Source: a virus. From it: a stretch of DNA of 39,456 bases. Below the pieces are notes generated by a model, which saw nothing but the letters and a program-made list of their open reading frames with translations, was not told the origin of the DNA and did not search any database. How positions within the stretch are numbered: the first letter of the stretch is position 1; every line of letters begins with the position of its first letter. The stretch is taken from IMG/VR virus record IMGVR_UViG_3300045988_107369; one strand, given 5' to 3'. The translations under genes and the position numbers were made by a program. Of this stretch, positions 218 to 37,850 are shown in pieces.

Positions 218-236
218 TGTCGTCAATTTGTCGTCA
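218..236 (+). promoter_or_regulatory. Two direct copies of TGTCGTCA spaced 11 bp apart; candidate integrase arm-type binding sites (attL arm)
   Basis: TGTCGTCA at 218..225 and 229..236. The same octamer recurs three times in the same orientation in the attR arm (39301, 39320, 39331). Confidence 0.5.
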
Positions 237-1352
237 GGAAGATTCGGCGGTTTTTGCTTGATTTTCGCCTGTCGGATTGATCGAAGTCAGCACGTTGCGC
301 AGCGTGTCGATTTCGTTGTGAACGTAGATTTCAGCGGTGACGTTGATGTCCTTATGACCAAGTAATTTTTGGATGGTGTAGATGTCTGCACCATGCCGCC
401 GGAGATAAGTACCATAGGTGTGCCGCAGTTCGTGTGCTGTCACAACCGGCACTTCGTTATGCTCATTGTGCAGCTTTCGCATAAGGCGTTTGAGCTTCTG
501 CGACCATGTGTTCGGGCAATAGGGCTTGCCGTCCTCGTTCGGAAACAGATACAGAGATTCCTTCGGCAGCGAGCGGATCAGCTGGACAGCCTCCTCGCTC
601 AACGGCAGGGTACGGTAGCTTTTCCACTTTGGCGGATTGGCAACGACCGTCCCGTTCCGCACGATCATAGAGCGCTGCACGCGGAGTGTCTTTTCGTTCA
701 AATCAATATCCGACCACATAAGGCCAACCAGTTCACCACGGCGCAGGCCGGTTTCCAGCAGGAGCACGACCTCGGGCATACGATCTGCGGTATAGGCTTT
801 GACCGTTTCTATCTGCTCATCACTGAGAACGTGCTTGATATGCTGCTGGGCGGTGCTGCGGTAGGTGCAATGCTTGGCAGGATTCTTATAGCAGAGGTCG
901 TTCTCTATCGCACATTCAAAGATTGCGTTGAGAATTGACCGCATTTTCTTTAATCGACTTTCCGAGCACGCTGTCTTAGTGGCGAAATACGCCTGTATGT
1001 CTACCGGACGAATATCGGATAGGAGGGCATTTCCAAAGTAGGGGATTAGGTGGCCCTCGACGAGGCTGACATAGGTCAGCTTGTATGTATCTTCCTCAAC
1101 AAACGGCTGCTTATAGGACAGCAGCCATTTCCGCGCCCAGGGAGCAAAGCGGCCGGTGGAGGGCACAAAGGCCTCTCCGGTACGCGCCGACACCTCGGAG
1201 GCTACGCGGTATTCCTCGGCTTTCTTCTTCGCATCGGACAGACTCACGGTGCTGTAAAAGGATTTGCGCAGCGGCTTGCCGTGGATATTGCGGCTGATGG
1301 TGATCTTGTACTCGAACCGTTTGTCCTTGCGTGTTGGCTTTTTTCTTGGCAT
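234..1352 (-). CDS. int: Tyrosine recombinase / phage integrase
   Basis: 372 aa. C-terminal catalytic region contains LRRGEL, HELRHTYGTYL and LLGHKDINVTAEIYVH (R..HxxR..H..Y pattern). Adjacent to the att repeat. Confidence 0.95.
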   Translation of the reverse strand: MPRKKPTRKDKRFEYKITISRNIHGKPLRKSFYSTVSLSDAKKKAEEYRVASEVSARTGEAFVPSTGRFAPWARKWLLSYKQPFVEEDTYKLTYVSLVEGHLIPYFGNALLSDIRPVDIQAYFATKTACSESRLKKMRSILNAIFECAIENDLCYKNPAKHCTYRSTAQQHIKHVLSDEQIETVKAYTADRMPEVVLLLETGLRRGELVGLMWSDIDLNEKTLRVQRSMIVRNGTVVANPPKWKSYRTLPLSEEAVQLIRSLPKESLYLFPNEDGKPYCPNTWSQKLKRLMRKLHNEHNEVPVVTAHELRHTYGTYLRRHGADIYTIQKLLGHKDINVTAEIYVHNEIDTLRNVLTSINPTGENQAKTAESS

Positions 1353-1396
1353 AACAATAAAACCCCTTTCTTATCGCATGAAGGTGTGATAAAATA

Positions 1397-1432
1397 GAGG
1401 TACTGATGGATGTGGTAATTTGTCAGTACCTC
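1397..1432 (-). terminator. Perfect 10-bp inverted repeat (GAGGTACTGA/TCAGTACCTC); possible minus-strand terminator or insulator upstream of int
   Basis: 10-bp stem with 16-nt loop, followed on the minus strand by TATTTTAT. Confidence 0.35.
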
Positions 1433-1435
1433 ATG

Positions 1436-1475
1436 TCCCGCTCTGGTGTTGGTAGCACCGGAGCGGGATTTTTTT
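1436..1475 (+). terminator. Strong intrinsic terminator on the plus strand
   Basis: 13-bp stem TCCCGCTCTGGTG/CACCGGAGCGGGA (one G-U pair), 7-nt loop, then TTTTTTT. Confidence 0.6.
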
Positions 1476-1805
1476 ATAAAATTTAAAAAGTTTTTTGACA
1501 CTTTTATATACCCAAAAAGCAATGGTAAAATGTGGCGTCGTGGCTTAGGAGGCTCGATTACGCACGATCCTATTTTTGGAAGTATATTAAAAAGTTTGAA
1601 CAATGTGAAATTGGAAAAGTTAGTCGGTCATATTGCCAATTTACAAATATGAAAAAATGAATTACTATTATTTGCATAAAAGGCGAACATGCGTTCTTGG
1701 AACACATTATAGAGAAAGGCAGGAAACTGTATGGCAGATAATCTACGGCGGGTCGCCCAATGCATTGCTCGCTGCCGTAATAAGGAAAAAGTGAAAGTAG
1801 CGCTT

Positions 1806-2201
1806 TCATTCTTTCTCGAACCATGCGTCCAACAATCCAATCCAGTGGATCAGGAAATCGGCATCGCGGTTGCTGATGTCCTCGCCGTTGCGGATATAAC
1901 CGCGCTCAACGAGTAAATCGGTGAGCCATTTTTCAATCTCCTCTACTTCAGCTGCGGCTGGAGCAGGGGAGTTTTCTTTTTTGAAAAACTCGTTAAATCC
2001 ATCAACGCGCCCTAACAAATAGTCCACTGTACACCCAGTTATGTTAGATACAGCGATGAGTATTTCTGAATCTGGCTTGTGATTTCCTTTTTCGTAACCG
2101 TTTAATGTGCTGGCTGCAATCCCGAGTTTTTCAGCCAGTGCCTTTTGAGTCATGCCGATATTTTTGCGAGCATCGGCTATTCGTGTACTCATATCATTCA
2201 C
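1806..2201 (-). CDS. XRE-family HTH repressor (CI-like)
   Basis: 131 aa. N-terminal HTH is IGMTQKALAEKLGIAASTLNGYEKGNHKPDSEILIAVSNITGCTVDYLLG. Divergent from a Cro-like gene. SD GAGGTG precedes the ATG. Confidence 0.9.
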   Translation of the reverse strand: MNDMSTRIADARKNIGMTQKALAEKLGIAASTLNGYEKGNHKPDSEILIAVSNITGCTVDYLLGRVDGFNEFFKKENSPAPAAAEVEEIEKWLTDLLVERGYIRNGEDISNRDADFLIHWIGLLDAWFEKE

Positions 2202-2262: not shown

Positions 2263-2339
2263 ATTCTCGAATTTTCGTTCCCCAAAAAGGTTGACAAATT
2301 CGAGTAATTAGAATATTATATAGTTAGAGATTCGAGAAT
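2263..2339. promoter_or_regulatory. Three operator-like palindromes ATTCnnGAAT in the divergent switch region
   Basis: ATTCTCGAAT at 2263..2272 and ATTCGAGAAT at 2330..2339. An imperfect copy ATTCGAGTAAT at 2298..2308 lies between the -35 and -10 of the rightward promoter. Confidence 0.6.
2291..2319 (+). promoter_or_regulatory. Near-consensus sigma70 early rightward promoter
   Basis: TTGACA (2291..2296), exactly 17 nt of spacer, TATTAT (2314..2319). Confidence 0.7.
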
Positions 2340-2354
2340 CTCAAATTATAGGAG

Positions 2355-2564
2355 GTGAATACAGTGAGAATGAATATCGAAGCCGAACGCGCTAGACTGG
2401 GTTTGAGCAAAGAAGAACTTTCGAGAAAATTGGGAATCAGCTCCAAGACGTATAGTAAGTACGTTGGAGGTTCTCCAATTTCTTCGGACATTCTTGTTAA
2501 AATGGCGGATTTGTTTGACTGCTCCATCGATTATTTGCTCGGGCGCAACGAAGTAACCGCATAA
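2355..2564 (+). CDS. XRE-family HTH regulator (Cro-like)
   Basis: HTH is LGLSKEELSRKLGISSKTYSKYVGGSPISSDILVKMADLFDCSIDYLLG. SD AGGAGG at 2350..2355 favours a start at GTG 2364 or ATG 2370 rather than 2355. Confidence 0.88.
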   Translation: MNTVRMNIEAERARLGLSKEELSRKLGISSKTYSKYVGGSPISSDILVKMADLFDCSIDYLLGRNEVTA

Positions 2565-2586
2565 ACGAAGAAGGAAGTGAGCACCA

Positions 2587-2682
2587 ATGTTTTGGAATTG
2601 GTTAAAGAAAAACCACCCCGTTATCAACGAAGCGGTATGGTGGCTAGTCATTCTGATGTGCGTCGCTGTATTACTTAATTAA
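2587..2682 (+). CDS. Possible 31-aa membrane peptide (not in the ORF track)
   Basis: ATG 2587 is preceded by GAAGGAAG. The product MFWNWLKKNHPVINEAVWWLVILMCVAVLLN has a hydrophobic C-terminus. Its end overlaps the converging gene by 12 nt. Confidence 0.3.
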   Translation: MFWNWLKKNHPVINEAVWWLVILMCVAVLLN

Positions 2683-3015
2683 GAAAAAAGATTTGATGAA
2701 TGCTGCTAATGCGATGATAAGGGTTGCCCAAGCACGAAATTCCTTGAATTTAATAGTGTGACGGGCCTTGGTTTCATCTTCCAAAGCAGCACGCCCCTCG
2801 AAGGTGATATAAAAGGGCATATCAGGGGTTAATGCCCTTTGATCTTCTGATTCTGGGTAATTTGGATCAGTATGATCACCGTCGATAAATCCTTTTTCCC
2901 ATAGGGAACACAACACATCCATTGTGTTGGTGTTCATAACGGCGTCAAGCTGCAAAAGCGACATTCTGGATCGCACAGAAAACGCTTTGAGCGTATTAAA
3001 TGATAAGTTGTCCAT
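2671..3015 (-). CDS. Hypothetical protein with a winged-helix-like N-terminus and a C-terminal TM anchor
   Basis: Start assigned to internal ATG 3015 because AGGAGG (reverse complement of 3023..3028) precedes it. 114 aa. C-terminal WATLIIALAAFIKSFFLI is hydrophobic. Oriented like int and the repressor. Confidence 0.65.
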   Translation of the reverse strand: MDNLSFNTLKAFSVRSRMSLLQLDAVMNTNTMDVLCSLWEKGFIDGDHTDPNYPESEDQRALTPDMPFYITFEGRAALEDETKARHTIKFKEFRAWATLIIALAAFIKSFFLIK

Positions 3016-3020
3016 CAGTA

Positions 3021-3092
3021 TTCCTCCTTTCAGTTCCCAGTATATCACACTGACCGAGGAGAGGCAACGACGACACACAGGAAAGCGAGGTG
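3021..3092. repeat. Copy A of the duplicated bidirectional intergenic cassette
   Basis: Aligns with 3773..3838 at roughly 75% identity by eye. Shares the leftward SD TTCCTCCT, the extended -10, and an 18-nt perfect block ACACAGGAAAGCGAGGTG (3075..3092 = 3821..3838). Confidence 0.8.
3039..3047 (-). promoter_or_regulatory. Extended -10 promoter element (TGATATACT) for gene 2671..3015
   Basis: The minus strand reads TG-A-TATACT about 10 nt upstream of the SD. Conserved in copy B. Confidence 0.5.
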
Positions 3093-3097
3093 AGAAC

Positions 3098-3379
3098 ATG
3101 ACCGAAACCGAAAAGTTGAAACAGGAAAACGAAACCCTGCTGCTGTGCCTCGAACTTACGTTTGCAGTCGTGGAGCTTTGGGCAAAGCAGCAGGGGTTCA
3201 TCCAGTCAACGTCGGGAGACGTACTCGAAAAGGAACTTGCCGATCGGAAGAACGAGGTCAGAACTCTTTTTTACAAGCTTGTAAAAACGAGCGAGCCGGG
3301 ATTTCTCGACGGGCTTCTCGGAGCGTTGAATATCCCGGAGGATGTCAAGCATCTCGTTAAGCTCCGCTTGATCGGCTGA
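3098..3379 (+). CDS. Hypothetical 93-aa protein (uncertain)
   Basis: ATG lies 5 nt after the conserved GAGGTG of the repeat block. The product MTETEKLKQENETLL... looks protein-like. It overlaps the 3' end of minus-strand gene 3206..3766 by 174 nt, so one of the two may be a shadow ORF. Confidence 0.35.
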   Translation: MTETEKLKQENETLLLCLELTFAVVELWAKQQGFIQSTSGDVLEKELADRKNEVRTLFYKLVKTSEPGFLDGLLGALNIPEDVKHLVKLRLIG

Positions 3380-3766
3380 TGGCTGGCGAGAGATAACCTC
3401 TTGGATCTCATCAAGAGCAGCCGAACTGTTGTAGTTCATCGAGCCAACAGTATTGTTGTTGCCGATCGTCGCGTTGTTGATCGTCGCGCCGCTGAAATTA
3501 AAGTTGGCCGATGGCTGTTCTGTGACAGCAACAAAACCGTTGCGTACATATGTCTCGCCTTTTTCAGTAAGAGCAAGACAGTAACCACCTAATATAGGCA
3601 TAACAGTCCTTGCATAGCCTCGGTCAGTGATTGTCTGTACTGCGGTTCTGAGAGCAGCAGTGTCTGGAATTTGTTCACACTTGTCCGCACTGATCTGGAA
3701 AGGGCCTGCGTGGTTCTGCTCATGGTCGTAGATGAGCTTCAACAGTATGTTACAAACAGTATTCAT
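3206..3766 (-). CDS. Hypothetical protein: winged-helix-like N-terminus, Asn/Gly-rich linker, helical C-terminus
   Basis: Start at ATG 3766 is preceded by AGGAGG. 186 aa. Contains LALTEKGETYVRNG (MarR-like wing), NFNFSGATINNATIGNNNTVGSMNYNSS, then amphipathic helices. Confidence 0.65.
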   Translation of the reverse strand: MNTVCNILLKLIYDHEQNHAGPFQISADKCEQIPDTAALRTAVQTITDRGYARTVMPILGGYCLALTEKGETYVRNGFVAVTEQPSANFNFSGATINNATIGNNNTVGSMNYNSSAALDEIQEVISRQPSADQAELNEMLDILRDIQRSEKPVEKSRLARFYKLVKKSSDLVLPIGKFLFEYVSRR

Positions 3767-3772
3767 TCTAAT

Positions 3773-3838
3773 TTCCTCCTTTTCTTCCAGTATAGCACGC
3801 TGGACAGGGAGGAGCAACATACACAGGAAAGCGAGGTG
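3773..3838. repeat. Copy B of the duplicated bidirectional intergenic cassette
   Basis: See copy A. Contains TGCTATACT (minus strand, 3789..3797) and the 18-nt perfect block 3821..3838. Confidence 0.8.
3789..3797 (-). promoter_or_regulatory. Extended -10 promoter element (TGCTATACT) for gene 3206..3766
   Basis: The minus strand reads TG-C-TATACT at the same position relative to the SD as in copy A. Confidence 0.5.
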
Positions 3839-3844
3839 GTTGCA

Positions 3845-4018
3845 ATGAACTATATTTCATCCGAAGTCGCCGGTTGGGCGCTGCTCATTCTGGGACAGGT
3901 GTACCTGCTCAAATACAAGCTGTTCCGTGAACGGCTTGACAAAATTGGTGCAGCGCTTACGACCTCAATGGCCGGCTTGCTCTTTGCGGCTCGGCTGGCC
4001 ACATACCTTATTGCATAA
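3845..4018 (+). CDS. Small membrane protein (57 aa, two hydrophobic helices)
   Basis: ATG lies 6 nt after the conserved GAGGTG. The product contains VAGWALLILGQVYLL and SMAGLLFAARLATYLIA. Confidence 0.5.
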   Translation: MNYISSEVAGWALLILGQVYLLKYKLFRERLDKIGAALTTSMAGLLFAARLATYLIA

Positions 4019-4036
4019 ACAGGGAGGTGACCACTT

Positions 4037-4306
4037 ATGACCGTACCTACGACAATCACTAGCAAGCTGGCAGAGCTGGAACAGCTTTGCGAGAAGTACC
4101 CCAGGAAAATCCCGATTGAGGAGTGTGCCGCGTTCCTCGGTATGGCGCCTGCAAGCCTGCGGGCGAGCGTAGAGCATGGCAACTGTCCGTTCGGCTTAGG
4201 GTGGCTCAAGAAAAATTCGATGAACCGGGCATTTTTTGTACCGACATTAACATTTTACCTGTGGGTAACGCAGGGAAGTGGATTTCGAGAGGAGATGAGA
4301 ACGTGA
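4037..4306 (+). CDS. Putative small HTH DNA-binding protein (excisionase-like or regulatory)
   Basis: SD GGGAGGTG. The product contains IPIEECAAFLGMAPASLRASVEHGNCPFG, which resembles Xis/AlpA-type HTH. Function inferred. Confidence 0.45.
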   Translation: MTVPTTITSKLAELEQLCEKYPRKIPIEECAAFLGMAPASLRASVEHGNCPFGLGWLKKNSMNRAFFVPTLTFYLWVTQGSGFREEMRT

Positions 4307-4482
4307 AACGCATCAATGAAGCAATCGTCGGCCTGTCATTCCTCGGTCTGCTGTCTGCCAGCGGCTACGCTGAAATGGACAAGCTGCCGATGGGCGGTTA
4401 CACAGTTCTGGCGGCACTGCTGTTGGGCGTTATGCTTATCAGCGTACGCAGCGCTGTCAAGCACTACTATGAGGGCGACTGA
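4303..4482 (+). CDS. Small membrane protein (59 aa)
   Basis: GTG start overlaps the upstream stop (GTGA) and is preceded by GGAGA. Two hydrophobic segments. Confidence 0.5.
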   Translation: MKRINEAIVGLSFLGLLSASGYAEMDKLPMGGYTVLAALLLGVMLISVRSAVKHYYEGD

Positions 4483-6611: not shown

Positions 6612-7258
6612 GCCTGAAAGCAAAACGCAAGGTCGTGAGCAGCATTCCGCCGATGGACGGCGGCACCTACATGGGTGTTTGCGTTGCGGTCGTTGACCTC
6701 GGTCAGCAGTACAAGCAGTTCGAGAAGCAGAAGCAGGGCAAGTACGCCGAGGAATGTATGTTCATCTTTGAGATACCGGATGAGCGTGTCGAGGTGGACG
6801 GCGAGGACAAGCCGCGCTGGCTGTCGTCCCGCCGGTTTACGGTGTCGCTGCATGAGCGTGCGGCGCTGTTCCAGATGCTGACCGCATGGCGCGGCAAGGC
6901 GCTGACCGATGCAGAATTGGATCCGGCCGGTGATGGCTTTGATCTGATGCAGATGGCAGGCGTACCGGCCATGCTGAGCGTGACCGTCGTTGAAAAGGAT
7001 GACGGTAGCAAGTACAACCGCATCGAGGCGGTCACCGGTTTCCCTAAAGGCCTTCCCGCACCGAAGCCGGAGAGCGAAATCCTCGTATTTGATGCGGATG
7101 AGCCGGACATGGAAGTGTTCGGCAAACTGCCCGAGTGGGTGCAGGACATCATCCGCAAGTCTACGCAGTTCGCGGACAACGCACCCGAGGAAAAGGTCGA
7201 TATTCCGCCCGAAGAACCGGAAACGCCGCCTGACAGCAAAGGAGCGTGCCCGATTTGA
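6608..7258 (+). CDS. DUF669-like phage protein (putative ssDNA-binding or recombination accessory)
   Basis: 216 aa. The IPPMDGGTYMGVCVAVVDLG N-terminus and acidic C-terminal tail resemble DUF669 proteins found beside phage ATPases. Assigned from memory of the family. Confidence 0.5.
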   Translation: MSLKAKRKVVSSIPPMDGGTYMGVCVAVVDLGQQYKQFEKQKQGKYAEECMFIFEIPDERVEVDGEDKPRWLSSRRFTVSLHERAALFQMLTAWRGKALTDAELDPAGDGFDLMQMAGVPAMLSVTVVEKDDGSKYNRIEAVTGFPKGLPAPKPESEILVFDADEPDMEVFGKLPEWVQDIIRKSTQFADNAPEEKVDIPPEEPETPPDSKGACPI

Positions 7259-7956
7259 CGTTTACATCACTGGCGAGCAGCTCCCGCGGCAACGCCTACG
7301 TCGTGTCGGACGGGGAAACGACCCTGCTGCTGGAGTGCGGCCTGTCGTTCAAGGAGCTGCAAAAGCGGCTCGGCTATGGTGTGGCGGACATTACCGCCTG
7401 CCTTGTCAGCCATGAGCATCAGGACCACGCCAAGGCGGCAGCACAAATGCTGAAAGCTGGCGTGCCGGTATACATGAGCGAGGGCACGGCCGCCGCCCAC
7501 AAGGATGCAATGGACGCGGCGCACCTCATCCGGGCAGGAGAGGTGCTGCGGTTCGGACACCTGACCGTTGTTCCGTTCCGCACCTATCACAATGTAGAGG
7601 AGCCACTCGGCTTTCTCATTGAGGACGGCCGCACGAAGGAGCGGCTGCTCTGGGCGGTCGATACTGCCAATCTGGGTGTCACCGCTGACCGGCTGACTTA
7701 TATCGCCGTAGAGTGCAACTACGAGGAAAGCCTGCTGGACCGCAGCGACCGCATTCCCTCGTTGCTCAAGGAGCGCATTCGGCACAGTCATTTCGAGGTG
7801 AATGACGTTATCAAATGGCTGCACAAGCAGGATCTCAGCGGCGTGCTCACCATCTGGCTGCTGCACCTGTCCGCTGGCAACAGCAGGGCAGAGGCATGGC
7901 AGCGGCGGTTTGAACGGGAGTTTCCGGGGATTGAGATTCGGATTTGTCCGGAATAA
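7246..7956 (+). CDS. MBL-fold metallo-hydrolase (putative nuclease)
   Basis: Contains the SHEHQDH (HxHxDH) motif with downstream conserved His and Asp. Confidence 0.85.
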   Translation: MPDLTFTSLASSSRGNAYVVSDGETTLLLECGLSFKELQKRLGYGVADITACLVSHEHQDHAKAAAQMLKAGVPVYMSEGTAAAHKDAMDAAHLIRAGEVLRFGHLTVVPFRTYHNVEEPLGFLIEDGRTKERLLWAVDTANLGVTADRLTYIAVECNYEESLLDRSDRIPSLLKERIRHSHFEVNDVIKWLHKQDLSGVLTIWLLHLSAGNSRAEAWQRRFEREFPGIEIRICPE

Positions 7957-16225: not shown

Positions 16226-17583
16226 AAGTGAACAGCCGCACGATTCAGCGGCTTTTACAGGGGCACGGGCAGTTTATCCGCGAGGCGGACGAGGCGCGGC
16301 GCTATTACAGCAACGTCAACCGCATCAAGCAGGACAACAGCGTTTTGCAGCGGCAGGCAGAGACCGAACAGACACTCGGCAATCCGCTGCACCTCGCGGA
16401 CAACCGTATTTCGCATTCGTGGCATAACCTGCTCGTGACGCAAAAGGTTTCCTACGCGCTGAGCTATCCGCCGGTGTTTGACGTGGGGAACAAGACCGCC
16501 AACGAGCGGATCGCAGAGATTCTCGGAGATCAGTACACCGCAACGGCCATGCAGCTGGGCATTGACGCGAGCAACACCTCGGTCGGCTGGCTGCATTACT
16601 GGCGCGGCGCAGACGACAGGTTCCGCTACCACACCGTAGATCCGGAACAGATCGTGCCGGTGTTCTCCGGTACGCTGGAGAGCGATCTCGTCGGCGTGCT
16701 GCGCTGCTACACCATGCTCGACCCGCAGAGCGGACAGACCGTGCAGGTGTGCGAATACTGGGACGACACGACCTGCCGGTTCTACCGTCAGAACGGCGTG
16801 TCCGGCAACTACACCTACTTCGAGTATCCGAAAGTCGGACAGGAGCTGCGGCACGGCCTCGGCGCGGTGCCGTTCATCCCGTTCTACAACAACGCCGACC
16901 GGCGGGGCGATCTGCCGCTGTACCGCGACCTGATCGACGCCTACGACAAGGTGGTTTCCGGCTTCGCCAACGATATGGAGGACGTGCAGGAGGTCATCTT
17001 CGTCATCAAGAACTACGGCGGCACGGACAAGACCGAGTTCATGAGCGACCTCAAAAAGAGCAAGCTCATCAAGGTCGAGGGGGACGGTGGCGTGGACACC
17101 ATTCGCGCGGAGATCCCGTTTGAGGCGCGGAACGCTTTCCTCGAAAGAACCCGCCGTCAGATCTTCGTCAGCGGCATGGGCGTTGACCCGAACCCTGAGA
17201 ATTTCGGCAACTCGTCCGGCGTGGCGCTCAAGTACCTGTACAGCCTGCTGGAGCTGAAGGCCGGCATGATGGAAACGCAGTTCCGCTCCGGCTTTGCCGA
17301 GCTGGTGCGTGCTATCTGCCGCTTGGAGGGTATCGCGCAGCCGAAGCGCATTCTCCAGACCTGGACGCGCAACATGGTCCAGAACGACCTTGAAACCGCA
17401 CAGATCGCACAGCAGTCGGTCGGCATTATTTCGGACAGAACGATACTTGCAAACCATCCGTGGGTAGACGATGCCGAGAGCGAGCAAAAGCAGTTGGAAA
17501 AGGAACAGCAGGCAGCAGCCGAGAAGCAGCCGCAGTTTCAGTTTCCACCAAAGGACGGTGTAGGCGATGGCAGCAGCGGATAA
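16219..17583 (+). CDS. Portal protein (SPP1 gp6-like)
   Basis: 454 aa, directly after terL. Contains NRISHSWHNLLVTQKVSYAL and the typical acidic C-terminus. Confidence 0.9.
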   Translation: MVKVNSRTIQRLLQGHGQFIREADEARRYYSNVNRIKQDNSVLQRQAETEQTLGNPLHLADNRISHSWHNLLVTQKVSYALSYPPVFDVGNKTANERIAEILGDQYTATAMQLGIDASNTSVGWLHYWRGADDRFRYHTVDPEQIVPVFSGTLESDLVGVLRCYTMLDPQSGQTVQVCEYWDDTTCRFYRQNGVSGNYTYFEYPKVGQELRHGLGAVPFIPFYNNADRRGDLPLYRDLIDAYDKVVSGFANDMEDVQEVIFVIKNYGGTDKTEFMSDLKKSKLIKVEGDGGVDTIRAEIPFEARNAFLERTRRQIFVSGMGVDPNPENFGNSSGVALKYLYSLLELKAGMMETQFRSGFAELVRAICRLEGIAQPKRILQTWTRNMVQNDLETAQIAQQSVGIISDRTILANHPWVDDAESEQKQLEKEQQAAAEKQPQFQFPPKDGVGDGSSG

Positions 17584-19054
17584 GCTGAACGGCGCGTACT
17601 GGCGCAAACGTGCCATCGAGCTCGCCGAAAAGCAGAAACGAGAGGATGACGACTTGTGCTTGCGCTTTCATCGGGAGTATGAGCGCATTCTGCACGAACT
17701 GGACAAGGAAATCTCGATTTTCTACGCCAGATACGCCGAGAACGAAAGCGTCAGCATGGCAGATGCACGCAGGCTGCTGCGGGATGCCGAGCTGGAGGAC
17801 TTCCAGATGTCGCTGGACGAGTTCCGCGACAAGGCGCTTGCCGGCGGCTTTGACAAGGAATTGGAGGAGGTTTATCTCCGGTCGCGTATCTCGCGCTTAC
17901 AGGCGTTGCAGACGCAGGTGGAGCTGCGGATGAGGGAACTGTTCGGCTCTCAGCGCGATGTGCTGCGCGACCATTTGCAGGAGCGCTACACCGACACCTA
18001 CTACCGCACGGTGTACGCTGTCAGTCAGCAGATGAATGTTGCAAGCACATTCGCTCGCATTGACCCGCAGACGGTCGAGAAGATACTAGCCGTGCCGTGG
18101 CTCGGCAGTGAGTTTTCCTCCCGCATCTGGGCGGACAAGGACAAGCTGACCCGTGAGCTGATGCAGACGCTCTCGCGCGGCTTTGTCCGCGGCGACTCGC
18201 TCGATCGCATGACGAAAGAGTTCACCCAGCGCATGGGCGTGTCCGAGAGCAGGGCGGCAACGCTCATTCACACCGAGAGCGCCCATATGGCGGCTGAGGC
18301 CGCCGAACAGGGATACCGGGAAACCGGTGTCCAGTCCTATCGGTTCGAGGCGGCGCTCGACCTCAAGACCTGCACGGTGTGCGGCGCTCTGGATCAGCGC
18401 GAGTTTCCGCTCGCGGAGCGTGAAACCGGCATTAACTATCCGCCGCTGCACCCACGCTGCCGGTGTACCACCGTTCCGGTGACGGAGTTCCAGATCGGCA
18501 GTAAGCGTGCCGCCAGAAATCCCGCGACCGGCAAGACCGAGTATGTCGAGAAAGGTATGACATATGAGGAATGGCATAAGAAATATGTTGAAAACGACCC
18601 GGAAAGTGCTATACTGGAATTGAACAAGCGCGAAACAAGCGCACTGCAGAAGTATGTCAGTGTGGCCAGCTATTCGCTAAACGATAAGCTGCGCCGAGGT
18701 GAATCACTCAGCGAAGCGGAACAGCGCTGGACGAAACGGCTTGACAAGGCGCTGGATAAACTTCCAGTGTACGAGGGAACGGTATATCGTTCTCTGTCCA
18801 GTGACATGATACCAGATAAAGCTGCTTTTCTGGCAGCGCATGAGGTTGACGCGATCGTTACATACGACGCATACACGTCTACTTCTACGGAGGTATATGA
18901 CTCGGATATGGATATTCAGCTGGTTATTCAGAGTAAGACCGGCAGAGATATGCGTGGTATCAACACAATCGAAAAGGAAATCCTTTTCAAGAGAGAATCG
19001 CGTTTCATTGTTGACAGAAAGGAGGGCAACACCATATGGATGACAGAAATTTAA
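17567..19054 (+). CDS. Minor head protein (SPP1 gp7 / Mu F-like) fused to a C-terminal ADP-ribosyltransferase domain
   Basis: The N-terminal two-thirds has the gp7/MuF pattern including CTVCGALD...HPRCRC. The C-terminus has the R-S-E ART triad: VYRS, YTSTST and EKEILF, preceded by LQKYVS..SYSLNDKLRRG. Confidence 0.85.
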   Translation: MAAADKLNGAYWRKRAIELAEKQKREDDDLCLRFHREYERILHELDKEISIFYARYAENESVSMADARRLLRDAELEDFQMSLDEFRDKALAGGFDKELEEVYLRSRISRLQALQTQVELRMRELFGSQRDVLRDHLQERYTDTYYRTVYAVSQQMNVASTFARIDPQTVEKILAVPWLGSEFSSRIWADKDKLTRELMQTLSRGFVRGDSLDRMTKEFTQRMGVSESRAATLIHTESAHMAAEAAEQGYRETGVQSYRFEAALDLKTCTVCGALDQREFPLAERETGINYPPLHPRCRCTTVPVTEFQIGSKRAARNPATGKTEYVEKGMTYEEWHKKYVENDPESAILELNKRETSALQKYVSVASYSLNDKLRRGESLSEAEQRWTKRLDKALDKLPVYEGTVYRSLSSDMIPDKAAFLAAHEVDAIVTYDAYTSTSTEVYDSDMDIQLVIQSKTGRDMRGINTIEKEILFKRESRFIVDRKEGNTIWMTEI

Positions 19055-37821: not shown

Positions 37822-37850
37822 TTGACAAAAGAGTGAAATTCTCGTATGAT
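37822..37850 (+). promoter_or_regulatory. Near-consensus sigma70 promoter of the terminal cargo operon
   Basis: TTGACA (37822..37827), exactly 17 nt of spacer, TATGAT (37845..37850). Confidence 0.7.

Follow-up and report, generated by a model that had tools for sequence, protein, structure and literature searches.

Positions 2587-3844 of the DNA analysed here (IMG/VR record IMGVR_UViG_3300045988_107369; 39,456 nt, hereafter the window) probably constitute an array of morons joined by PeSL-like regulatory cassettes. Two moron modules appear to be inserted directly after cro, each made up of two convergent genes: a short ORF on the forward strand (ORF31 or ORF93) would be translated from the rightward early transcript, and the reverse gene facing it (gene A or gene B) would have a compact sigma-A promoter, an SD and a terminator-like hairpin of its own. 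The cassette would pack the promoter and SD of the reverse gene together with the SD of the next forward ORF. As copies of it stand between the modules and related phages have it in common, it may also act as a homologous-recombination junction for the gain, loss and exchange of modules. By analogy the cassette resembles PeSL, but it belongs to a temperate Firmicutes phage and serves both strands. The main features are as follows.

234..1352: phage tyrosine integrase of ordinary type, the sole integrase in the window
2291..2319, plus strand: PR-like early promoter, TTGACA-17-TATTAT, 11/12 consensus match, in the immunity intergenic region
2355..2564, plus strand: cro-like HTH_3 gene, 69 aa (PF01381, E 1.9e-12), left edge of the variable array
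2587..2682, plus strand: ORF31, 31-aa single-TM peptide, forward member of module 1
2604..2636, minus strand: weak candidate intrinsic terminator of gene A, a hairpin and TTTTTCTTT, inside ORF31 (promoter/terminator scan)
2671..3015, minus strand: gene A, 114 aa, MarR-like winged helix at the N-terminus, long helix, hydrophobic C-terminal tail
3016..3097, both strands used: cassette A, between gene A and ORF93
3098..3379, plus strand: ORF93, 93-aa small acidic helical protein, forward member of module 2
3100..3199, minus strand: candidate gene B terminator, a long hairpin (arms 3131-3149 and 3181-3199) and then a U-rich tract
3206..3766, minus strand: gene B, 186 aa, phrog_21028, PadR/YjcQ-like winged helix, linker, four-helix C-domain
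3767..3844, both strands used: cassette B, between gene B and ORF57
3845..4018, plus strand: ORF57, 57 aa, small, moderately hydrophobic early ORF with the cassette B SD

The phage and its immunity region

The source is probably a temperate phage whose hosts are gut Butyricicoccaceae or other Clostridia. The window carries an integrase and a CI/Cro module, and DNA and protein searches of the INPHARED phage collection gave no match. The minus-strand genes had been described as lying in the path of the early transcript, which agrees with the PR-like promoter found upstream of cro; this promoter is presumed to be the source of a rightward transcript crossing the whole 2587-4018 array. Beside it in the immunity region are ATTCTCGAAT-type inverted repeats (2263-2272 and 2330-2339), and a one-mismatch copy occurs far off at 37838-37847. 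The GC content of the modules is 42-52%, compared with 59-64% for the replication genes downstream. A search of 2300-4400 against Rfam gave no match. The genes, ORFs and repeat words all lie where the earlier note had placed them.

Structure of the cassette

The paralogy of the two intergenic segments, which the earlier note had proposed to check by alignment, was confirmed. In a local alignment of 3016-3097 with 3767-3844, 57 of the 66 aligned bases are identical, with a score of 36 (2000 shuffles: mean 7.7, sd 1.5, maximum 15) that no other tile of the window reaches. The perfect 18-nt block ACACAGGAAAGCGAGGTG is present in both copies and ends 5 nt (cassette A) or 6 nt (cassette B) ahead of a plus-strand ATG; at up to three mismatches, it matches the window at these two sites only, against 0.04 matches expected. 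Another shared word, TTCCTCCT, is found at 3021-3028 and 3773-3780. The cassette unit is about 75 bp long, and the two copies in the window are 746 nt apart. A scan of IMG/VR with the exact 18-mer was discarded, all 12 matches being in unrelated SD-like contexts. The elements of the two cassettes are listed below.

3067..3062, minus strand: cassette A -35, TTGCCT, 17 nt from the -10
3044..3039, minus strand: cassette A TG-extended -10, TATACT, in the word GTGATATACTGG (3048..3037), which contains TGnTATACT
Complement of about 3021-3030, minus strand: cassette A reverse SD, AAAGGAGGAA, with the gene A ATG at 3015
3075-3092, plus strand: cassette A forward SD block, ACACAGGAAAGCGAGGTG, serving ORF93
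3817..3812, minus strand: cassette B -35, TTGCTC, 17 nt from the -10
3794..3789, minus strand: cassette B TG-extended -10, TATACT, in the word GTGCTATACTGG (3798..3787), which contains TGnTATACT
Complement of 3773-3782, minus strand: cassette B reverse SD, with the gene B ATG at 3766
3821-3838, plus strand: cassette B forward SD block, serving ORF57

On the minus strand, each copy is predicted to carry a compact sigma-A promoter (TTGCnn, 17 nt, TGnTATACT) followed by AAAGGAGG and ATG. The leftward SD and extended -10 noticed earlier are therefore joined by a -35 at 17 nt (TTGCCT or TTGCTC), and the right-hand block was correctly identified as the SD of the rightward ORF. In a scan for consensus promoters, cassette A passes and cassette B fails, with only 3/6 matches in the -35; on a related phage contig, L179, three of the five cassette copies read TTGCCC-17-TATACT with TG. 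A plus-strand promoter was not detectable in the cassette in either the window or L179. Since each cassette gives the plus strand only an RBS, the description of the segments as a "bidirectional promoter" is unsupported, and the motifs point to a one-way promoter with two divergent RBSs. If so, the cassette would be a compact and apparently portable promoter and RBS part for Clostridia.

When 24 distinct copies were aligned, the conserved columns proved to be the -35, the -10 and the two SDs. Near-invariant are CAGTATAnCAC (the -10 with a TRTG-type extension), GC-AAC (the -35) and GAAAGCGAGGTG (the forward SD); so is the reverse SD (CTCCTTT on the plus strand), which can be recognised by eye although register shifts blur it. 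The word GAAAGCGAGGTG stands 5-8 nt ahead of the ATG in at least 12 different forward ORFs, and also ahead of ORF31, where the reverse promoter is absent. The cassette forms no significant hairpin (z -0.3 to -2.2), and its sole symmetry is that of the two divergent SDs. A plus-strand RNA fold sequestering the SD was considered and dropped, because no fold reached significance and the anti-SD was paired with an internal GGAGG. Terminator-like hairpins are located 100-400 nt from the cassette, within the forward ORFs.

The left half-motif (an extended -10 at 4-8 nt from the SD) is common ahead of Oscillospiraceae chromosomal genes, so that part of the similarity between cassettes may come from a promoter design general in the clade and not from shared ancestry. 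A search of GTDB genomes with the half-motif CTCCTTT-N-CCAGTATAnCAC was rejected as unspecific: the matches listed were mostly ordinary Oscillospiraceae chromosomal promoters, and about 100 chance matches are expected for such a collection by a back-of-envelope estimate.

Cassettes and probable cargo exchange in related phages

At least 24 distinct copies of the cassette, up to five per contig, were found in related gut Clostridia phages (two in the window and 2-5 in the relatives), where they precede at least ten unrelated reverse-oriented genes. Judged from the sequences, the cassette is a lineage-wide junction element common to unrelated cargo genes, and not the local duplication as which it had been described. 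In addition, the divergent pair had been taken as the unit, whereas the unit that is conserved and exchanged is the convergent pair of a forward ORF followed by a reverse gene. Among ten other cargo proteins compared with Pfam and PADLOC, the only match was to DUF6173, in one protein, and the cargo genes matched none of the known exclusion or defence families. The cassette would offer a simple sequence handle on an accessory-gene hot spot of temperate gut-anaerobe phages, one that is rich in membrane-associated and wHTH ORFans outside every defence or exclusion catalogue.

Homology breakpoints between the phages coincide with the cassette edges. Compared with contigs L179, L019, L025, L027 and L055, the breakpoints at cassette A are at 3020, 3072 and 3092-3096; the HSPs span 3020-3838 (L179), 3072-3838 (L019) and 2569-3096 (L025) of the window, and those of L179 and L019 both stop exactly at 3838, in cassette B. 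L019 and L179 lack gene A, genes A and B are found separately in other phages, and L032 is 95% identical from 4304 onward yet carries other cargo. The similarity between cassettes does not track cargo and partly tracks the genome: cassette A of the window has a similarity of 0.88 to an L179 copy with other cargo, compared with 0.78 and 0.74 to copies that bear gene A. From the breakpoints and this incongruent similarity, we infer that recombination has taken place at the cassettes.

A simple local tandem duplication of a promoter-plus-gene unit, from which A and B would descend as diverged paralogues and which would mean little beyond this phage, would account for two copies only 746 nt apart and for the winged helix with which both proteins begin, the wHTH domains being set in register by hhalign. 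The hhalign probability is only 14%, however, and paralogy of genes A and B was rejected on this ground. With the two genes separate in other phages, at least ten unrelated cargos behind the cassette and cassette similarity that does not track cargo, such a duplication is extremely unlikely.

The repeats could also be binding sites of a phage regulator (stoperator- or operator-like) in which the promoter-like words are incidental. The copies are indeed repeated, oriented and intergenic within an early operon, and the stretch of 12-20 nt that separates the -35 from the forward SD is specific to each genome, its copies there being homogenised. However, conservation falls on exactly the -35, -10 and SD positions, and the cassettes are common to phages with unrelated repressors: the contigs that bear them have between them three or more different repressor/cro modules, the repressors including a 131-aa HTH_3 protein, an S24 LexA-like protein and a DUF739/HTH pair. 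Cassettes A and B contain none of the CI/Cro operator words of their own immunity region (the ATTCTCGAAT type), and no dyad symmetry is conserved across the copies. A role as regulator sites is therefore quite improbable, and a promoter and RBS cassette remains the preferred reading.

Module 1: ORF31 and gene A

The product of gene A, which had been described as wHTH-like with a TM anchor, does model as a winged helix; its C-terminal tail is hydrophobic and carries the invariant motif EFRAWxTLxIALAAFIKSFF. It resembles MarR structures in Foldseek (E 1e-3, prob 1.0, TMq 0.5-0.6) and matches nothing in Pfam, PHROG, PADLOC or NCBIfam. ORF31 shares 12 nt with the 3' end of gene A and has a hydropathy of 2.85 across residues 16-30. 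The two are co-conserved in L025, L027 and L055, and substitutions in ORF31 fall mainly at third codon positions (e.g. 3/2/11 at positions 1/2/3). The sequence of the candidate gene A terminator is largely conserved in the same three contigs; its hairpin differs from the MFE structure, and a fold z-score of only -0.65 was obtained.

Module 2: ORF93 and gene B

The gene B product had likewise been read as wHTH-like, with an N/G-rich linker and a helical domain, and this architecture is recovered in the model: residues 1-80 form a winged helix and residues 84-112 a disordered linker rich in N and G, and the C-domain, which is conserved, has four helices. The protein resembles PadR in Foldseek (E 4e-3, prob 0.96) and the YjcQ chain 2hgc in a profile comparison (E 0.0014). 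A profile search of 1.8 billion representatives shows that its family numbers at least 369 clusters (50% identity, E up to 0.001), which are unannotated and, among those listed, mostly about 180-200 aa long. Single members among 65 distant relatives match YjcQ, DUF2513 and other wHTH models. The remote-homology and structure searches proposed in the earlier note thus gave winged-helix folds for both minus-strand proteins (modelled as MarR-type for gene A, and PadR- and YjcQ-type for gene B) and no Pfam, PADLOC or NCBIfam family; neither protein reaches the Pfam cut-offs, including those of MarR, PadR and YjcQ.

ORF93 and gene B overlap by 174 nt on opposite strands (3206..3379), codon in register, so that the overlap comprises the last 58 codon positions of both (57 sense codons and the stop of each). 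The earlier note regarded both translations as protein-like and suggested that synonymous constraint in homologues be used to decide between the strands; selection for coding was seen on both. ORF93 accompanies gene B, antisense and in register, in every homologue locus complete enough to assess. In most of these its frame is open over a similar length, even where protein identity has fallen to 32%, and most lineages have a strong SD 5-8 nt ahead of it. Longer versions of ORF93 are read in L209/L210 and L230/L232, and the pair of L229 looks anomalous (233 aa and 67 aa). In the part of ORF93 that does not overlap gene B, substitutions number 17/9/47 at codon positions 1/2/3; its N-terminal 36 codons are conserved as an amphipathic-helix protein pattern, amino acid differences there amounting to 3% and 21% and synonymous ones to 13% and 48%. 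Synonymous differences in gene B are fewer inside the overlap than outside it (0.11 vs 0.27; 0.32 vs 0.64). Within the overlap, ORF93 has substitutions of 62/12/33, mostly at its own first codon positions, and its C-terminal half is therefore weakly constrained as protein. Taken together, the substitution patterns indicate that both overlapping ORFs are under coding selection. As a long antisense overlap, the pair is unusually well supported; it covers about 58 codons, and its conservation reaches down to about 32% protein identity.

If ORF93 were no gene, 3098-3379 would be the 3' UTR and terminator of gene B, with an antisense frame open by chance. The candidate terminator (-41 kcal/mol, z -3.2) sits in the non-overlapping part of ORF93, where the hairpin and U-tract take up codons 12-34, and it is kept in L019, L179, L212, L214 and L215. 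Synonymous resampling of gene B leaves the in-register antisense frame open with a frequency of 0.06-0.13 per lineage, and the substitution pattern of the overlapped half is dominated by gene B. We nevertheless regard this explanation as very improbable, given an upstream SD in most lineages, a frame that stays open and in register at similar length in most assessable loci, and 36 N-terminal codons outside gene B that vary as a protein does.

Gene callers are inconsistent on the ORF93/gene B pair, giving 93 or 149 aa for the former and 186, 204 or 131 aa for the latter. As for ORF57, which follows cassette B, a homologue with 60% identity stands after a cassette in L027.

Possible functions of the modules

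The reverse promoters would fire in lysogens independently of CI, and after induction the rightward early transcription would collide with them. The reverse proteins, one a membrane-tethered wHTH protein and the other a soluble one, may be prophage accessory, exclusion or regulatory factors, among which a rex/sie-like exclusion role is conceivable, and the forward partners could counter them. Further than this, the cassette array might be a dedicated exchange system for "lysogen versus lytic" pairs, each consisting of a prophage-expressed effector and an early lytic partner that neutralises it. Neutralisation would come from the partner protein and also from head-on transcription with partly dual coding, allowing induction to escape the prophage's own exclusion or regulatory factor; in ORF93/gene B, this coupling would be hard-wired by the 174 nt of conserved antisense dual coding. 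This extension is possible, and we put it forward as doubtful.

Antisense RNA control might instead be the main role, the leftward cassette transcripts silencing early, possibly toxic ORF31 and ORF93 in lysogens, in the manner of lambda OOP against cII or of type I toxin-antitoxin pairs such as bsrG/SR4. The convergent overlaps (12 nt plus UTR in module 1, 174 nt in module 2) would suit this, as would the terminator-like hairpins of the reverse genes inside the forward ORFs, a layout that is alike in L179. Besides, forward and reverse partners are always co-inherited, and ORF31 is a 31-aa hydrophobic peptide of a kind typical of type I toxins. However, neither ORF31 nor ORF93 has its own promoter, so that with PR repressed silencing would be unneeded, and co-inheritance is trivially explained by the physical overlap and by the lack of a recombination junction between the partners. 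The reverse ORFs represent conserved protein families with confident folds and are therefore not merely RNA. On these grounds, antisense control as the main role is unlikely; ORF31 differs from type I toxins in having no detectable promoter of its own and in being opposed by a transcript that encodes a conserved protein, and the array of protein-coding morons is still preferred.

Comparison with known systems

Leftward transcripts oppose or overlap rightward early transcripts near cro in lambda (OOP/cII and paQ) and in coliphage 186 (pR-pL). In those switches the antisense RNA is non-coding or a repressor transcript, whereas here the opposing transcripts would encode variable accessory proteins and might interfere with early transcription. 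Sie2009 and Ltp are small membrane-anchored exclusion proteins encoded near the immunity region of Gram-positive prophages, and Ltp uses HTH-like domains. Gene A has no sequence or profile similarity to exclusion proteins of this type, and its product, in contrast to them, is modelled as tail-anchored, with the wHTH domain probably cytoplasmic. The array is also not one of integron gene cassettes, as it has no attC-like hairpin and the only integrase is an ordinary phage tyrosine integrase.

Morons are promoter-gene-terminator units located between phage genes and spread horizontally (Juhala/Hendrix concept; "The moron comes of age", PMC3594210). The modules are like the morons of temperate phages in their atypical base composition relative to the backbone and in their presumed expression from the prophage. 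A promoter of their own is predicted in both cassettes (TTGCCT-17-TG-TATACT in A, TTGCTC-17-TG-TATACT in B), and candidate terminators follow both genes: a strong hairpin with a U-rich tract for gene B, and a weak hairpin with a T-run for gene A. The modules are present or absent between homologous genomes, as seen with L019, L179 and L032, and differ in GC content. Unlike usual morons, they lie antisense inside the early operon directly after cro, in arrays of up to five, with one homologous promoter/RBS cassette and a convergent forward ORF for each.

PeSLs of T4-type phages (Arbiol et al. 2010, PMC2839356; Comeau et al. 2014, PMC4122927) combine a sigma-70 promoter and a terminator stem-loop on the same strand as the early genes, and the phages that carry them are virulent myoviruses infecting Gram-negative bacteria. 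Both systems have short conserved regulatory cassettes repeated between small ORFan genes in hyperplastic regions, and in both the places where relatives differ can be traced to cassette-bounded exchanges, which here are inferred. In the present phages a promoter motif recurs between the ORFans of a hypervariable region (at least 24 copies, at least ten cargo families), and the HSP ends at 3020, 3072, 3092-3096 and 3838 show indels and replacements bounded by cassettes. In contrast to PeSL, the cassette contains no stem-loop terminator, has two divergent SDs and a predicted promoter directed against the early operon, and belongs to a temperate Clostridia phage with an integrase and CI/Cro, a phage type other than the T4-like myoviruses and one without a match in INPHARED. 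The relation to PeSL is accordingly one of analogy, not membership. If the cassette reading is true, cassette-mediated modular shuffling would extend from virulent T4-type phages to temperate phages of abundant gut anaerobes.

The forward half of the cassette may be compared with the SAS/ESAS of Cluster K mycobacteriophages (Pope et al. 2011, PMC3203893). SAS is an asymmetric conserved repeat of 13 bp, with about 10-19 copies per genome, whose SD core lies 3-7 bp upstream of unrelated non-structural gene starts, and no divergent promoter is linked to it (PMC3203893). Similarly, GAAAGCGAGGTG precedes unrelated starts in one orientation, and in both repeats conservation exceeds the needs of rRNA pairing. 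Unlike SAS, GAAAGCGAGGTG forms half of a promoter cassette and occurs in 2-5 copies per genome.

Organization of the locus

Between the cro-like gene and the early operon, 1.4 kb of the window holds two reverse genes, A and B, each preceded by an intergenic cassette, together with small forward ORFs. The coordinates in the earlier note were all correct. Members of the 90%-identity clusters of the integrase and of gene A include Agathobaculum and Butyricicoccus entries, and no sequence similar to the window phage was found among deposited phage genomes.

Features at and around the locus (window position, strand, content)
234..1352, minus: tyrosine integrase, first gene in the window
1806..2201, minus: CI-like HTH_3 repressor
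between the repressor and the cro-like gene: intergenic region in which promoters face each other, with inverted repeats of the ATTCTCGAAT type
2355..2564, plus: cro-like HTH_3 gene
2587..2682, plus: ORF31
2612-2636: weak candidate terminator of gene A, followed by a T-run
2671..3015, minus: gene A, 114 aa
3016..3097: cassette A
3098..3379, plus: ORF93
3131-3199: strong terminator-like hairpin of gene B, followed by a U-rich tract on the minus strand (-41 kcal/mol, z -3.2)
3206..3766, minus: gene B, 186 aa
3767..3844: cassette B
3845..4018, plus: ORF57
from ~4300, rightward: early operon, including an SMC/AAA_23 ATPase and an MBL-fold protein

The proposed paralogy of the two intergenic segments was borne out by alignment: 57 of 66 ungapped positions of 3016-3097 and 3767-3844 are identical, and their local score is 36, against 7.7 +/- 1.5 (maximum 15) for 2000 shuffles, with no other part of the window near that value. 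The 18-nt block ACACAGGAAAGCGAGGTG occurs in the window only at 3075 and 3821 with up to three mismatches allowed (0.04 expected). On the minus strand, copy A, whose predicted promoter was picked up by a consensus scan, reads TTGCCT, 17 nt, TG-A-TATACT, about 8 nt, AAAGGAGGAA, 6 nt and the gene A ATG; copy B reads TTGCTC, 17 nt, TG-C-TATACT, a Shine-Dalgarno (SD) sequence and the gene B ATG. On the plus strand, no promoter-like site is present in either window copy or in any of the five copies of L179 (L numbers denote comparison loci from related phages or genomes), and the cassette contributes only GAAAGCGAGGTG, 5-8 nt upstream of an ATG. This argues against the bidirectional promoter of the earlier note and for a predicted one-way, minus-strand promoter with two divergent ribosome-binding sites.

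When 24 distinct copies taken from related contigs are aligned, near-invariance is seen at CAGTATAnCAC (the -10 with its TRTG-type extension), at GC-AAC (the -35) and across the forward SD block. A reverse SD (CTCCTTT) can also be made out in the copies, its columns blurred by shifts in alignment register. A reading of the cassettes as stoperators is contradicted, since they contain no immunity-region operator words and are common to different immunity modules.

Two further repeats were also seen. GTGCTATACTGG, the 12-nt extended -10 word of cassette B, recurs at 18606-18617 (plus strand) inside ORF 17567..19054, which could reflect an internal promoter or chance; the word is found three times in the window, where 0.27 occurrences would be expected. 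Positions 3048-3071, in the spacer and -35 region of cassette A, form a 24-nt inverted repeat with 3606-3629 in the interior of gene B, at 83% complementarity.

The cassette in related phages

Context look-ups of gene A and gene B homologues, combined with pattern scans, recovered the same cassette from related gut-metagenome and IMG/VR contigs, whose immunity modules differ (S24 LexA-like repressor, DUF739-type cro and others). L019 has one full cassette and one right half, L027, L032, L037, L055, L060 and L062 have two each, L025 has two full cassettes and two shortened variants, and L179 has five within 2.6 kb. The promoter-side (cargo) genes are mutually unrelated, forming at least ten families whose members measure 56-284 aa. 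TM segments occur in several; apart from one DUF6173, none was recognized by Pfam or PADLOC.

In blastn comparisons of the window with these loci, homology blocks start and stop at the cassettes. On the gene B side they span 3020-3838 with L179 and 3072-3838 with L019, and on the gene A side 2569-3096 with L025, 2574-3094 with L027 and 2588-3092 with L055 (window coordinates). L032 is 95% identical to the window from 4304 onward, yet carries different cargo. A local duplication is contradicted by the presence of the cassette in related contigs before these unrelated cargo families, and by the hhalign probability of 14% between genes A and B, at which paralogy is not demonstrable.

Cassette similarity does not track cargo. 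The window copy before gene A reaches 0.88 identity with an L179 copy whose cargo is 58 aa long, against 0.78 and 0.74 with the gene A copies of L025 and L027, and copies within a genome tend to be alike (0.83 between the two of L027; 0.82-0.90 among L179 copies 1-3). Homologous exchange or gene conversion in the cassettes would be expected to produce such a pattern, and it matches that described for the PeSL regulatory cassettes of T4-type phages (PMC2839356, PMC4122927). On these comparisons, the cassette appears to be a lineage-wide junction element. Its left half alone (the extended -10, 4-8 nt from the SD) is common upstream of Oscillospiraceae chromosomal genes among the matches listed; only the full cassette is diagnostic.

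In the genome-collection loci (L084-L203), CTCCTTT-N3-8-CCAGTATAnCAC places the extended -10 just 4-8 nt from the SD, which implies a very short leader. Among the matches listed, this arrangement lies upstream of many chromosomal genes of Oscillospiraceae and other Clostridia, and in most of them, by eye, a start codon (read as CAT in the strand displayed) apparently follows within a few nt; the arrangement resembles a promoter and leader design typical of the clade. Upstream of 1124-1738 in L025, a shortened cassette lacks the GAAAGCGAGGTG block, and the forward ORF takes its SD from an internal GGAGG in the promoter spacer (…AAGGAGGAGCAATG); the variant may represent the ancestral minimal form.

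Convergent pairs

The unit of exchange is the convergent pair of forward ORF and reverse gene. ORF31 and gene A occur together in the window, L025, L027 and L055 despite differing immunity modules, and in L055 a cassette also precedes ORF31; ORF93 and gene B occur together in all gene B loci complete enough to assess. ORF31 is under coding selection: comparison of the window with L027 gives 3/2/11 changes at first/second/third codon positions. Each reverse gene has its terminator-like hairpin within a forward ORF, a layout shared by L179, and that of gene B is retained in closer relatives.

The most distant gene B homologues (L209/L210, ~3480-4040; L230/L232, ~2980-3540) are divergent from a cro-like XRE gene, with an apparent XRE repressor and an ImmA/IrrE-type peptidase further on along the same strand, by a look at the sequence; the pair therefore lies inside the immunity region itself. 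The antisense ORF reads 141-192 aa in these loci.

Proteins of the reverse genes

The suggestion that both minus-strand proteins are wHTH-like was supported by AlphaFold2 models built from family alignments. The gene A model (pLDDT 82) has a wHTH domain (residues 1-70) and a long helix running into a hydrophobic tail with the invariant motif EFRAWxTLxIALAAFIKSFF. In that of gene B, a disordered N/G-rich linker joins a wHTH domain (1-80, pLDDT ~90) to a C-domain of four helices. The nearest Foldseek matches are MarR proteins for gene A and PadR proteins for gene B, with marginal E-values and high probabilities. With its profile, gene B gives a weak match to YjcQ (2hgc; E 0.0014), and single distant members of the family hit the Pfam models for YjcQ and DUF2513. 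Neither protein is matched by any model for defence, exclusion or toxin-antitoxin systems.

Antisense overlap of ORF93 and gene B

Codon-position and synonymous analysis of the overlapping ORFs found both to be coding. Gene B has 51 full-length homologues in a word-indexed search, and an exhaustive profile search finds at least 369 representative clusters for it (E up to 0.001); its most conserved region, the C-terminal domain, is the overlapped part. By tblastn, ORF93 lies antisense to gene B homologues in all loci complete enough to assess, down to 32% identity, always codon-in-register and with a typical overlap of 150-204 nt; the antisense frame would stay open by chance in only 6-13% of synonymous resamplings per lineage. 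Nearly all ORF93 homologues found by protein search cover 92-100% of the query and so are close to complete; the exception is a 72-aa fragment with 40% coverage. Public gene calls disagree (93 or 149 aa for ORF93; 186, 204 or 131 aa for gene B).

The first ~36 codons of ORF93, outside gene B, show a conserved protein pattern (…LKQENETLLLCLELTFAVVELWAKQQGF…). In this non-overlapping part, amino-acid versus synonymous differences are 3% versus 13% in close pairs and 21% versus 48% in mid-distance pairs, and substitutions at codon positions 1/2/3 number 17/9/47 and 23/17/70. A reading of ORF93 as non-coding is contradicted by the 17/9/47 pattern, by the conserved N-terminal codons and by its antisense presence at gene B homologues. 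At codons of gene B with identical amino acids, synonymous differences within the overlap occur at about half the rate seen elsewhere in the gene (0.11 vs 0.27, 0.32 vs 0.64, 0.48 vs 0.63). Substitutions in the overlap follow the gene B frame (34/12/65 for gene B, 62/12/33 for ORF93); therefore gene B dominates, leaving ORF93 under weak constraint in its C-terminal half. The conserved antisense gene overlap is a well-supported additional result.

Interpretation of the locus

The best-supported reading of the locus is an array of two morons (PMC3594210) with PeSL-like, SAS-like regulatory cassettes (SAS, PMC3203893) as joints; each moron comprises one gene with its predicted promoter and its terminator-like hairpin. 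The morons face against the early operon, and the regulatory cassette would double as a recombination junction. We infer that the predicted leftward promoters are active in lysogens, that early transcripts running rightward would collide with them once the prophage is induced, and that exclusion, immunity or regulation may be the role of the wHTH proteins. An antisense-RNA or type I toxin-antitoxin-like reading is a minor rival to the moron array. The observation of the earlier note is confirmed and its interpretation partly supported; morons and regulatory-cassette shuffling are the known kinds here, and the locus is a variant of both.

Other features of the window

A strong terminator-like hairpin (16 bp and a T-run, 1435-1469, within 1361-1477, plus strand) lies just past the integrase gene and before the repressor gene, at the position of a PyrR-like Rfam match that falls below threshold (34.6 bits vs a gathering score of 54). 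About 400 nt past the phage integrase, a second tyrosine integrase gene is present in L013 (7934-8561) and in L016 and L017 (4111-4737), contigs identical to the window, which points to elements integrated in tandem or to a hot spot of integration. The MBL-fold protein of the early operon (7246-7956, plus strand) matches Lactamase_B_2 (E 1e-10). For the identical gene in L013, a precomputed table shows a weak Anti-Pycsar_Apyc1 match, which was not reproduced at E <= 0.001; the protein is possibly an anti-defence nuclease or a recombination-module nuclease.
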